A program made the translations under genes and the position numbers. A model generated the notes under the pieces. The model was given only the letters and a program-made list of their open reading frames with translations. It ran no database searches and had not been told where the DNA came from. From Carcharhinus longimanus (lineage: Eukaryota), in NCBI GenBank assembly GCA_030264375.1, contig JASCQW010000139.1, positions 28,598,692 to 28,662,691 of the forward strand: a stretch of 64,000 bases of DNA, read 5' to 3'. This document shows positions 10,080 to 62,560 of the stretch, one piece after another. Every line of letters begins with the position of its first letter. The first letter of the stretch is position 1.

Positions 10080-11100
10080 AAATGAGATGCATCCGAGAAT
10101 ACTGAGAGAAGTAAGGGAGAAAATTGCGGAAACACTGGTCATAGCCCTCCAATCCTCCTTCGATACCAGGCTGGCGTCGGAGGACTTGAGAATCACAAAG
10201 ATCACACCCATGTTTGAACAGCTGTTTAAAGATAAACTTAGCAACAACAAACAAGTGATATTAACCACATTGGGAGAATGTATATAAATGAGAGTCTAGG
10301 ACAAAAATTAGCTGTCACTTTGACACAGGTATGGTCTAATTAAGAAAAGCCAGCACAAATTTCTTGAGGACAAATTGTGTTTAACTAAGTTGATTGAGTT
10401 TTTGATAAGGTAACGTTAAGATAAGGTAAGGTAAGGTTAATGAGGTGTGCATGGACTTCCAAAATTTGATCAAGTACCACATAACAGGCTTGCCAGCTAT
10501 GTTGAAGTTCTTGGAATGAAAGGAACAGTGGTAGTTTAGTTATGAAGTTGGCTGAGTGACAGATAGCAGTAGAGGATGACTGTTTCTCAGAATTGAGGAA
10601 GGTATAGGTTACCCTAGAACTGGAGCCACTTTGCTTATATTGACATATATCAATCACCTAGATTTGGGTGCACAAGGCACATTTTCAAAATTTGCAGGTG
10701 ACATGAAACTTGGAAGTATGTTGAGTTGTGACAAGGTTAATGATAGTCTTCAAGAGAATCTAGACAGGGCATGTTGAATAGGCTGATGAAATTGAAGTGG
10801 AGATGCCGGTGTTGGATTGGGGTAAACACAGTAAGAAGTTGGCATCTTGTCTGTTTCCTTTCATCTTTGTGGAAACTTGATGTCTGTGTCAATATGCGCG
10901 ACTGATGAAATTGAATGCAGAGAAATGTGAAGTGACACATATTGGTAGGAAGAATGAAGGGACACAGCATACAATAAAAGGTGTAATTTTAATGGGGATG
11001 CAGTAACAGTGGGAGTAGTAGGTGCACATATCATTCAAGGAGGCAGGGAAGGTTGAGCAAGCACTTAGCAAGGCATACAGGATTCTGGCCATTAGTAGTA
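10080..11100 (+). mobile_element. Decayed CR1 (HER1-type) LINE ORF2/RT fragment
   Basis: MHPRILREVREKIAETL, SQHKFL..KLCLT..FFDKVT and FSKFAGDMKLG motifs with frameshifts and stops. Confidence 0.85.
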
Positions 11101-14530: not shown

Positions 14531-15448
14531 AACTTGATTTCTTGTTGGAACTTTGGCAGAACGTGTAAGGAAATAGTTAAAATTTGTCATTCATACAATT
14601 TCTCCAGTTAACTGCCAAAAGTTAATGCAAGAGATGGGAAGAAAAACCATCCTGATTGATCTACTGTAGCTTCTTGAACTGACAGAGGGGTAGAAATTGC
14701 TTAGTAGCAAGAGGTTGGGACAAAATCAGCTGAGCAAAAGGACTAGTTCCTGCACTGGAATAATTAGGCCTGAATCCCAAGTCAAATTTGGCTGTTTGCC
14801 TCCTTTAATTAAAACAATTTTAAAAATGGCCACACAAATTTAGAAATGGGACCAAAGCCAGTGCAGACTGGGCAAAATCCCTTTGTTTTTGGTATGCCTA
14901 ACCAGTATTTTACACATGAAAAGTGGACACAACGCATGCCAATTTCTGTGCCAACTTGTTTTTATACGCAGACATCTTGGAAAAGAGTAGATGTGCGACC
15001 ATTAACAAGTACAAGGCTGCTCTCAATTCGATTGAAGTGAGTCAACCGTGTGAGTTAACGCTTTGATCACAGTGTCATTAGATTGTGCCAATGGCCCAGA
15101 GAGACTGCATATTTTACAGTAGGCCTTTAGTGCTGTGTGTTTCTGTTGTCAGTCTTCAATTAGTTTATAAAGGTCCCATAGATTTCAGACGTCGTCAGTC
15201 ATCTTGTCTGCCTGGGTGCTCAATAAATTTGTGGCTCAACGGGGAAAGACCAGGCTGGAAATCCCATTGAAACCTCACTAACTGATTAAAAGCAAAACAC
15301 TGGATGTTGGAAATTTGACATAAAAACAGAATATGCACTGCTAAAGAGAAGACATGATGTGGAGATGCTGGCATTGGACTGGGGTAAATACAGTAATAAG
15401 TCTCACAACACCAGGTTAAAGTCCAATAGGTTTATTTGGTAGCACAAG

Positions 15449-15485
15449 CCACTCGCTTTCAGAACGCTGCTCCTTCATCAGGTGG
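15449..15485 (-). ncRNA. Minimal type I hammerhead ribozyme motif (U16.1 mutated, probably inactive)
   Basis: Minus strand reads CCAC-CTGATGA-aGGAGCagcGTTCT-GAAA-GC-GA-GTGG. Confidence 0.5.
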
Positions 15486-15690
15486 GTGGGAGATCTGTTC
15501 ACAAACAGGGCATAGAGATACAAACTCAATTTACAACATAATGGTTAGAATGCGAGTCCTTACAGGTAATCAAGTCTTAAAAGTACAGTATCTTTAAGAC
15601 TTGATTACCTATAAAGACTCACATTCCAACCATTATTTTGTAAATTGAGTTTATGTCTATATAGGCCCTGTTTGTGAACAGAACTCCCAC

Positions 15691-15727
15691 CCACCTGATG
15701 AAGGGGCAGCGCTCTGAAAGCTTGTGG
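15691..15727 (+). ncRNA. Minimal type I hammerhead ribozyme motif
   Basis: CCAC-CTGATGA-aGGGGCagcGCTCT-GAAA-GC-TT-GTGG: stem I CCAC/GTGG, stem II, palindromic AAGCTT in place of stem III. Confidence 0.6.
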
Positions 15728-15984
15728 CTTGTGCTACCAAATAAACCTATTGGACTTTAACCTGGTGTTGTGTGACTTCTTTCTGTGAAGAGAAGTTACA
15801 CAGACTAGTGATGTTAGCTCTGTTTCTGTCTCCACACTTGCTGTAAGAAGTCTGACAAAACCAGATTCAAGTCCAACCGATTTATTCGATAGTAAACTCA
15901 CCGGCAACCAACGTAAACCAACGCTGGCATCTCCACATCCACACTTGCTGCCAGACTCTGTTCTGAAGAAGAGATCGAAACATT

Positions 15985-16451: not shown

Positions 16452-16607
16452 CATTAACTCTGTTTCTCTCTGCACAGATGCTGCTAGACCTGCTGAGTTT
16501 ATCTCCAGTACACTTTATGTCCAGTACCATTATCTGTTGAATTTTATGCCTATTTTTGTTGTCACACAATTATTACATGTCTGCACATTTTTAACCAAAT
16601 TACTTAT

Positions 16608-22349: not shown

Positions 22350-22465
22350 CAGTAAGAAGTCTCACCACACCAGGTTAAAGTCCAACAAGTTTATTTGATA
22401 GTAAACCCACAAGATGAGTGGAAAGTTTTGATCAGGACATATAAAGGTGCACACAGTTTACAGAA
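22350..22465 (-). mobile_element. Penelope-like terminal repeat fragment next to a gap
   Basis: cagtaagaagtctcaccacaccaggttaaagtccaacaagtttattt matches the arm of 15391-15440. Confidence 0.7.
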
Positions 22466-24390: not shown

Positions 24391-25804
24391 TAGCAACACT
24401 GCCCATACCAGCTCCTCCCCTCCAATTGGTGCCCCCACTGATCAACATCCTCTCTGTCGAGTTCCCCCTTACCCTCCTCCCCACGGAGATTCCCCCTACC
24501 TCGCAATCAGGCTCCACCCCTTCTTAGGCACCTCACCAGGCTCCACCCCTTCGAGCCCCACCCTCTAAGGCCCTGTCCCACTGGCATTGCCAGGGTGCCT
24601 GATAGGCACTTACAGGGTGTTCAGTGCGCAATGCCAGGGTACCAGGCTGGCTGTGCTCTGTTGGTGCTGACCCATGGGCACTGCCTGGCCCTTCTCCTGA
24701 CCATCCAGGGGGGCTTCAATGGCCTCCACACCCACCGAAGTCATCATGTCTGGTCCCTGTTGGTGAGGACCATCTGTGATGCTCACAGGTGAGGACCTTG
24801 ACCGGCGAGGGGGTTAGGATGGTAGCATCTGGGGCTCGTCAATGGCTTATTAATCATGATTTTAATATTGTAATTATTAAGGGTGCAACTCTGATTTTAC
24901 CAGCAAAATAATGGTGTCAAGATCCCAAGAAACCAAGCGCCCACACAATTTTCTGCCTCTCACCCTACCTTACTGGCTCACCACGCCGGTAGACCAGTAA
25001 GACCATACCCCATTGGCTCTGTTTCTTCCTCCACAGATGCTGCCTGGCCTGCCGGCATACCCACATCATGACTGCTGTGTATTTCCAGCACTTTCTATTT
25101 CTATTTCAGATTTCCATGCAATGTTTTGTTTTAATCTCATCATCCATTCACTTGACGTTGGTGGCATTTTGCTAAGGCTTAAACAGACTGCTGCATTTTT
25201 CTACAACCAAGAAATCATGACAAGCTGTAGCTGTGACATACAGTGGGATGTCGTGAAGTGGTGAAAAGCGCCAGACAAATGGGAGCTTTATCTTTAAAAT
25301 GTTGGCCTGACTTGTGGTTTCATCTTGAGTTGAAAAACACAGCGAACAAATTGGGAAGCAGAGCTGACAGTGCAGATTCCTACAGCTATGGTAATCCTAT
25401 ATTGATATATTCATCAGCAGTAACATTAGCAAGAGAAAAATAGAAGGATCCAATATTTTTAAGAATATGTGAAGAGAATCGTTAAAATAATAAAATCAAA
25501 ATAAAATACTTGGTCATCCAACATATGATCCAGATAAATTGTCAGTGTCAAATTAGGTACCAGCAGTTTTTTGAATCAATACATGTTTTGTTTCTTTGTT
25601 GATTTGCTTTAATTCAGGGTAGTAATCATTTAATGTTCCCAGTACAAAGCAATAATGAACACAGAAATCAATGCTGAAATGTATTATATCTGTGGTATAG
25701 GAATTAAGTAAAATTGGAGAAAATAAATAAAAGATATAATGTCAATAAAACATTTTAACAATGATGCAGAATGCAAATTGTGTGTATTGAATAGGCTATA
25801 TTTC

Positions 25805-28929: not shown

Positions 28930-29700
28930 ACCCAGTAAAAATAGAGAAAGCACCTCACAACCATTGATGATCTCTTATTTTTAATGGCAGAATATTCACT
29001 CTTAGAACATATTAGTTTGATATTTTCCAAAAAATTCATCAAAGTCACTTGGGAATAGCAAACGTTGAGCAAGAGCCCAGCAATGGTCTGGTGGCCAGAT
29101 ATTACCCGTTTTATTGAAGAACTAATTTTGAATTGCCTTATATGTGCAGCGATCAGCCAAGAGCAAAGAGAACCTCTGATACCCTTCACTTTTTCATCAA
29201 GGCCATGGCAGTGCTTGGGAATGGATTTATATGATTTTAAAGGCAAGATATTTCTTACTGTCACTTATTACTACTCCAGATGGATTGATGTGATCAAATT
29301 TTATAACATTATGATGGAAGCAGGCATTTATTCATTCATTCTCTGAAAAGTAGCTACAAAATACACAGCATCCCAGATCTTGTAGTATCAGACAATGGAC
29401 CATAATTTACTAATGAATTATTTTGCAACTTTGAGAAAGGAATAGGGATCCATTCACTTATCCAGCTCACCATCTCAAGCAAATGGAGAAGCTGAGAGAA
29501 ATGCTCAAACCAAAGATTTGAAGAATGAAGTTCTTCACATAGCCCTTCTTAGTTATTAGACCTCAGCGCGACAAAATGGATTCTCACCATGAGGCTTGTT
29601 CATGGGAAGATGACTGTGAACACAATCTTCAGTGCTGCAATAAAAACTAGAATAAAATACTATCTTGAATGACCATGAGAGAATTGAAAAGCGTGAGGAG
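28930..29700 (+). pseudogene. Ty3/Gypsy integrase relic
   Basis: KIHQSHLGI..VWWPDITRFIEELILNCLICA (HHCC zinc finger), REPLIP..SRPWQCLGMDLYDFKGKIFLTVTYYYSRW, SDNGP, SQANGEAER; frameshifted. Confidence 0.9.
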
Positions 29701-62014: not shown

Positions 62015-62560
62015 TAAAAGCAAAATACCGCAAATGCTGGAAATCTAAACTAAAAGGTGAGGTTCTCCAGCCTCCCAGCTGCATGTTTCCCGGTGGCAGG
62101 TGGTGGCTGGCTGTTTGCTAGCAGCGGATTCTCCAGTCCTGCTGCTGTGAATGGGATTTCCCATGTCACCCCATGCCATCATGAAAGCCATGGCAGGGAC
62201 CAAAGAATCCTACTAGTGTGAACAGTAGAAGAATTCCAGCCACAATATAGGAAATCCTGGAAAAACTCAGCATCTGTGGAGAGAGAAACAGAGTTAATAT
62301 TTTGAGCCTGTATGATTGTGCGCACTGAGGAAGAGTCATGTGGGAGGGAATTTTCTCGTCCTACCGGCCGTGGGAATTGTAGCAGGCCATTGATGGACCG
62401 TGCAGAGGTCCATTGACCTTGGGTGGAAATTTCCAGTCTGGGGGCAGCACGGCTGAAAAATCCTGCCCCTGGTTTCAAAACATTAACTCTCCTCCCTACA
62501 TACTTGCTGCCAAACCTTCTGAATTTTTTCAGCATTTCCAGTTTTTAGTTTAGAATTCAG
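62015..62560. mobile_element. Palindromic Penelope-type terminal-repeat element with two nested MITEs
   Basis: The left arm (aaaagcaaaataccgcaaatgctggaaatc..cagcatctgtggagagagaaacagagttaa) is inverted relative to the right arm; MITEs at ~62056-62241 and 62342-62469. Confidence 0.65.

Follow-up and report, generated by a model that had tools for sequence, protein, structure and literature searches.

A hairpin with opposed hammerhead motifs in Carcharhinus longimanus as a probable head-to-head insertion of Penelope-like element ends

Penelope-like elements (PLEs) that carry an endonuclease (EN+) leave behind a characteristic insertion unit, comprising a pLTR, an adjacent inverted and 5′-truncated copy, a tail of 30-40 bp at one end and a target-site duplication (TSD) (PMC8557442; PMC3846280), with published duplications measuring 8-10 bp (PMC3846280). 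Pairs of minimal hammerheads on opposite strands, 100-700 bp apart, have likewise been reported (PMC4209133). Neither the head-to-head layout nor the presence of small hammerhead motifs is new for such elements. Published minimal PLE hammerheads do not cleave as monomers and do so weakly as dimers (PMC4209133), or depend on the element's protein (PMC11167929); further background on hammerhead dimers and retrozymes is available elsewhere (PMC6155905; bioRxiv 10.64898/2026.07.22.740005). In vitro, a purified PLE protein cuts both strands of the target and extends each of them, with reverse transcription beginning at two sites, one at either boundary of the tail (PMC11167929), and an origin from antisense RNA or by self-priming has been proposed for head-to-head PLE palindromes (PMC3846280). 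The ends and junctions of the family considered below allow a statistical test of how PLEs integrate and of whether their hammerheads act in vivo (PMC4209133; PMC8557442; PMC11167929).

Here we analyse a hairpin within a window of 64,000 nucleotides of the C. longimanus genome (contig JASCQW010000139.1, assembly GCA_030264375.1). We read it as two 5′-truncated 3′ ends of an endonuclease-bearing Penelope-like retrotransposon that lie head to head between the copies of an 8-bp direct repeat, likely arrived in one insertion event and have probably been inert since; on the sequence evidence, we put the probability of this reading at about nine in ten. With the EN+ insertion unit, the locus shares head-to-head inverted pLTRs, a tail on one arm, an 8-bp TSD and a parent with reverse transcriptase (RT) and GIY-YIG endonuclease. 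It differs in the shortness of both arms, which at about 200 nt retain no ORF, and in belonging to a shark family of which a search of openly available papers found no description. Like the published minimal PLE hammerheads (PMC4209133), its motifs are of type I, with a 4-bp helix I, an extra base between A9 and 10.1, a palindromic 15.2-16.2 and no real helix III; unlike them, helix II measures 5 bp, as against 7-8 in Schistosoma, G10.1-U11.1 is present in both copies, and U16.1>G in one. The non-LTR retrozymes of animals (bioRxiv 10.64898/2026.07.22.740005; PMC7229834) are similarly non-coding, PLE-derived and equipped with a type I hammerhead, but are built of head-to-tail tandem units with a hammerhead in each, whereas the locus is head-to-head and unique.

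Layout of the insertion

The hairpin is an inverted repeat at 15390-15786, the arms of which (15390-15586 and 15588-15786) are reverse-complementary at 89.7% over 399 nt, one 2-nt gap included, and it lies within an insert spanning 15354-15787 (Table 1). An earlier note on this DNA had recognized the arms as reverse complements, and in this it was right; its wording 'near-perfect' stands here for arms that diverge by about 9% (8.9%). The predicted RNA is one hairpin of -293 kcal/mol (z -42.7), matched by none of 100 shuffles, which supports the long duplex that the same note expected of a read-through transcript. The loop of about 11 nt that it placed at the centre has not survived alignment to a long copy: the supposed loop bases are element sequence, both arms reach and share G15588, and nothing foreign lies between them. 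Three features are new with respect to that account, namely the 8-bp TSD, the 36-nt tail, which consists of element bases without a partner on the right arm, and a U at position 11.1 of both hammerhead motifs.

Table 1. Features of the insertion, in window coordinates.
Feature	Position	Strand	Basis
Target-site duplication, left copy, AAGAGAAG	15344..15351	+	Exact 8-bp repeat; 2 further bases precede the tail
PLE 'tail' of 36 nt, left arm only	15354..15389	-	Alignment to long copy; one-tail rule in the family
Left arm: 5′-truncated 3′ end (pLTR) of a Penelope-like element, inverted	15390..15588	-	87.5% to 3′ end of ORF-bearing copy L189
Damaged minimal hammerhead motif of type I (U16.1>G at 15454; C11.1>U)	15449..15485	-	
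Head-to-head junction	15583..15592	.	Arms meet at G15588 with 1-nt overlap; spacer absent
Right arm: 5′-truncated 3′ end (pLTR) of the same element, tailless	15588..15787	+	88.5% to L189
Minimal hammerhead motif of type I; core complete (11 bases), triplet CUU; stem II with G10.1-U11.1 and one further G-U	15691..15727	+	
Target-site duplication, right copy, AAGAGAAG	15788..15795	+	Exact 8-bp repeat

Inverted PLE structures are known to trouble assemblies (PMC8557442), and gaps are frequent beside such copies, so that a fold-back chimera introduced during assembly has to be weighed. Against this stand the 8.9% difference between the arms, the direct repeat at the ends and the contigs of public runs. 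One contig, of run X2, bridges the insert's right end with 33 letters inside and 100 outside; others, of runs X1, X6 and X7, enter the tail from the left flank by 22-28 letters, short of the 31-letter threshold. Such entry from the left flank is found in three organisms that are up to about 3% divergent, which suggests that the insertion predates the splits of those organisms. Contigs that enter the element, together with arms that differ by 9%, make an artefact very unlikely, indeed close to negligible.

The two arms are also typical members of their family. From the family majority, the right arm diverges by 6.2% and the left arm by 7.8%, where the median over 35 arms is 7.3%. They are nonetheless closer to one another (8.9%) than random pairs of arms are (13.2%), and share a base at 15691 that is seen in none of 35 other arms, an affinity that would fit a single template or later conversion and is accommodated by fold-back copying as well as by two primings.

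Host co-option of the hairpin, as a source of siRNAs or miRNAs or as an ADAR target, could draw on the very stable predicted duplex and on an insertion that seems common to related organisms. Indeed, siRNAs arise from inverted Penelope copies in Drosophila (PMC3681739), for which reason siRNAs from this locus would not be new. The divergence of the arms, however, is that of ordinary copies; pair-preserving changes are not in excess, neither arm has an A>G excess (1 A>G among 28 differences), and the miRNA matches in Rfam stay far below gathering scores. Accordingly, we consider co-option very improbable.

Parent element and family

The right arm returned 4,709 first-look candidates in the 2.68-Gb genome, and among the best 40 scored, 39 other places match it at 91-94% identity. 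Copies of the arm have a common 3′ end, while their upstream extent differs from copy to copy; in the longer ones, the upstream sequence consists of broken frames of RT and endonuclease. Where a copy is long (e.g., L189, L195, L198, and L199), ORF and arm share a strand, and about 107 nt separate the ORF stop from the arm that follows it. Arm sequence is present at 17 of the 20 best ORF-bearing loci of the genome, at least eight of which have an inverted copy on the 5′ side. No intact ORF was seen, and none of these 20 loci was found to be a full-length copy with a 5′ partial-tandem pLTR, all being apparently 5′-truncated or inverted.

Four broken frames from L012 and L020 gave nothing in Pfam, and the identity of the family came from relatives. 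A protein search with one broken frame returned 14 matches, sharks being best, with 82% to a protein of Mustelus asterias. In the three relatives examined, Pfam finds RT (PF00078; E 5e-9, 4e-6, and 3e-10), above the cut-off in two of them, and GIY-YIG in one (E 8e-4, below the cut-off), while DKG, YIDD (YIND in one), a CX4CX2C linker and a GIY-YIG-type motif are visible in all three. The linker occurs in the L012 frame and in P0002, P0005 and P0007, and matches the CX2-5CxxC linker between RT and EN that is described for the Neptune clade and is common to Nematis too (PMC8557442); this motif, the one character used, points to Neptune or Nematis as the parent clade. By its sequence hallmarks, which are an ORF linking RT to a C-terminal GIY-YIG, a terminal-repeat hammerhead, a tail at one end and a duplication, the locus is a fragment of an EN+ PLE.

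Two subfamilies can be distinguished (L043-L288), differing by a 7-nt indel just 3′ of the cleavage site; the short one has a stem I of only 3 bp, and its 5′ ends fall nearly always at the hammerhead's 5′ edge. Pieces of the element ORF occur within shark proteins annotated as septin 5a, PPP1R12A-like, USP8, follistatin-related 5 and NOXP20-like, which suggests exonisation in the annotations. In most copies, the antisense of the hammerhead's 5′ half (window 15473-15486, plus strand) reads as a consensus splice donor; the arm at this locus has G for A at +3.

Hammerhead motifs at the locus and across copies

The two opposed hammerhead motifs that the earlier note reported are present where it placed them, the minus one running from 15485 down to 15449. 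The plus motif consists of stem I (15691-15694), CTGATGA (15695-15701), stem II (15703-15715), GAAA (15716-15719), U16.1 (15722), H17 (15723, a U) and the 3′ strand of stem I (15724-15727). It thus keeps U16.1 and H17, and the minus copy has lost U16.1, both as claimed. Their assignment to the minimal type I hammerheads of Penelope-like terminal repeats, with a palindromic AGCU as stem III, is supported by the layout of the motifs, by the ORF-linked copies and by published examples (PMC4209133). An intact core together with G10.1-C11.1, a pair conserved in hammerheads (PMC4209133), is found in neither: C11.1>U turns the pair into G-U in both motifs, and the minus motif also lacks a complete core. 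In isolation, the plus motif is not predicted to adopt a hammerhead fold, and the folding of neither motif surpasses that of shuffled sequences. The covariance-model check came out negative as well, no hammerhead model in Rfam having matched in the window at E<=1. From these sequence changes, both motifs at the locus are probably dead. Two Rfam matches at the hairpin centre, MIR2275 (36 vs 60.5 bits) and mir-590 (29 vs 65), were set aside as generic hairpin matches.

The proposal of a hammerhead on either transcribed strand stands for the sequence but not for function as a dimer, because the RNA of each strand would hold one sense motif, preceded by its own antisense, and a cis dimer would consequently be impossible. 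In the predicted fold, read-through RNA pairs the sense motif with the antisense arm, so that self-cleavage is not expected; the single sense hammerhead would be hidden inside a duplex of about 195 bp.

In each of the two subfamilies, the base most common among copies agrees with the hammerhead core at all 11 positions. T stands for U16.1 in 218 of the 227 motifs compared across the family, and H17 in motifs that keep U16.1 is A in 101, U in 81 and C in 33 (215 of 227), with G in three; N7 is variable. In stem II, pair 3 is A-U in 102, G-U in 73 and G-C in 6 of 192 motifs, which is one recurrent change with pairing kept by G-U; only one-sided changes recur in stem II, and no recurrent two-sided, compensatory change was found. 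On these sequence counts, the parent motif looks constrained.

Of the two conditions that the earlier note named together as refuting its interpretation, the second, a catalytic core no better conserved than its flanks, is what the copies show. Mismatches amount to 30/361 (8.3%) in the core versus 334/3914 (8.5%) in the flanks for 33 arms of the long subfamily (p 1.0), and to 33/385 (8.6%) versus 181/1691 (10.7%) for 35 arms of the short one (p 0.23). The core has been kept intact in 11 of 32 long and 17 of 35 short arms. As a comparison among inserted copies, this parity shows neutral decay after insertion and is silent on the activity of the parent's motif.

The 5′ ends of arms are not spread evenly. 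In the long subfamily, 15 of 75 lie at the 5′ edge of the hammerhead, in a zone 37-51 nt upstream of the anchor, which is about four times the per-base rate further upstream (a ratio derived by hand from the table), and 64 of 78 short-subfamily arms end within 48 nt. In public contigs, too, the top joints among related copies lie within this zone. Most simply, the zone would be a frequent start of template RNA that had not been cleaved; micro-homology, or pausing at structure in the RNA, could also account for it. The arms at the locus run about 100 nt past this zone, which makes the cluster irrelevant to the locus itself. An apparent pile-up at the cleavage site (7 of 74 at 8-9 nt) was discarded as the reference is mismatched there; among 100 long-subfamily arms (75 uncensored), none ends at the site, four end one base upstream and one two bases upstream, all of them inverted junctions. 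Another, smaller cluster is weak (5 of 75); it sits where stem II has its 3′ foot, 18-20 nt upstream of the anchor, as pausing of RT at the folded stem would predict.

Palindromes across the genome and their formation

An exact 15-mer conserved in the arm occurs 26,193 times in the genome and is paired head to head, at a distance within 500 nt, in 1,939 cases (controls 0-1), so that at least about 15% of such arms sit in palindromes. The comparison of palindromic with tandem copies that the earlier note proposed was made on an unselected sample, the first 100 arms on contig C1, of which 82 have a readable 5′ end and 18 were dropped at assembly gaps: an inverted partner adjoins the 5′ end in 35 of 82, a direct (tandem) partner in one of 82. 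The arm 3′ ends in this sample are bimodal. Spans among the first 50 head-to-head pairs listed range from 44 to 497 nt, and junction positions are heterogeneous across the family. Twelve loci, this one included, fold back at the same site, and the junctions differ in all 12. Copies with an ORF show this kind of inversion too, on a scale of kilobases.

These counts bear directly on the non-autonomous palindromic element that the earlier note had proposed, a retrozyme-like ribozyme element that would be transcribed, self-cleaved and re-inserted whole. Its numbers (about 1,900 head-to-head pairs), the duplications that bound the whole unit and a parent motif that looks constrained at H17 are in its favour. 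However, the 12 same-site junctions all differ, spans vary widely, tandem partners are nearly absent, the kilobase-scale inversions on ORF-bearing copies are of the same kind, and one motif at the locus is without U16.1. Moreover, with one sense motif in the RNA of each strand, no unit could be excised. The palindrome is not copied as a unit, and a retrozyme-like element of this kind, already largely refuted, is highly improbable. Two related candidates were discarded, a family of palindromes of MITE or fold-back type (12 of 12 centres differ, ends are unequal, and duplication length varies from 7 to 15) and a non-LTR retrozyme (head-to-head locus, direct partner in one of 82 arms).

Of 73 palindromes examined, 54 are complete in the sense that both ends are readable. 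Exactly one arm carries a tail in 51 of these 54, both in one and neither in two. An exact duplication of >=7 nt flanks 28 of the 54 (shuffled flank pairs: mean 0.9, max 3) and none of that length was found in the other 26; across palindromes, duplications measure 7-15 nt. The tailless arm is longer in 26, the tailed arm in 19, and the two are equal in six. Junction gaps are short, most being -11 to 25 nt. In 46 of 49 pairs, both arms belong to one subfamily; of the three pairs that deviate, one is a filter artefact, and the pair at L148 appears to mix subfamilies. A same-template test on single variable bases gave p 0.16-1 with 6-7 pairs and is underpowered.

A mechanism of two nicks and two primings seems to us reasonably probable for this insertion. 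The element's protein would nick both target strands about 8 bp apart, and reverse transcription would be primed at each nick, once at the start site at the tail end and once at a start site 36 nt inside. Both cDNAs would stop about 200 nt into the pLTR and be joined by micro-homology or end-joining, with the hammerheads as passengers of the pLTR. That the tail is almost always confined to one arm, and that either arm may be the longer, would fit two primings, one per nick, joined mid-way. The 5′ inversions that LINE-1 produces by twin priming are comparable, in that one insertion with an inverted part lies inside one TSD, as at the locus. The two parts of such a LINE-1 insertion, however, derive from different RNA stretches; here, one stretch is copied in both arms.

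The same single insertion might instead have received its second arm by fold-back, one cDNA (or antisense RNA) having primed and copied itself; this alternative concerns the mechanism only. It accords with the published reading of head-to-head palindromes as products of self-priming (PMC3846280), with the subfamily shared in nearly all pairs, with the rare base common to both arms of the locus and with the short junction gaps. Yet fold-back in a fixed order predicts that one type of arm is always the longer, which the counts of 26 and 19 contradict; it must also account for one arm ending exactly 36 nt short, and for at least one pair, at L148, that is apparently of mixed subfamilies. We regard fold-back as a substantial possibility, if one somewhat short of even odds, and retain two primings as the preferred account.

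On a larger scale, we offer the tentative and rather doubtful idea that the thousands of short palindromes are a fossil record of Penelope integration, in which two primings would take place on opposite strands at the RT start sites that bound the tail, and the cluster of 5′ ends, which lies at the hammerhead's 5′ edge rather than at its cleavage site, would mark the start of uncleaved template RNA. If true, the in vitro picture from the anole element would extend to a vertebrate genome, and self-cleavage would not shape most insertions. The locus itself is of little weight, as one of roughly two thousand or more such stubs, and only the family-wide junction statistics carry mechanistic interest. 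The family nevertheless fills the shark genome with long, perfect-looking hairpins, which can mislead searches for ribozymes, miRNAs and MITEs and could feed dsRNA pathways when inside transcripts.

The surroundings of the locus add minor observations. Pfam found no host domain in 150 of 415 non-repeat open frames, a scan that can miss short exons, and returned one weak integrase match (Integrase_H2C2, window 29059-29343, plus strand, E 6e-4, below the cut-off), probably a decayed fragment of an LTR element. A second, smaller insertion lies 57 nt to the right, at window 15831-15950, between 13-bp direct repeats (15831-15843 and 15938-15950), and comprises part of a related PLE end in inverted orientation (15843-15901) together with a tail (15918-15939). 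Both insertions went into an older repeat (15284-15353 and 15796-15848), which is similar to 25050-25136, 16452-16500 and 62268-62300 and is possibly an older PLE end; sites of this kind may be preferred by PLE stubs or may accumulate them. On the minus strand, the window holds two further short ends that belong to the family, at 10793-10840 and 22350-22413.
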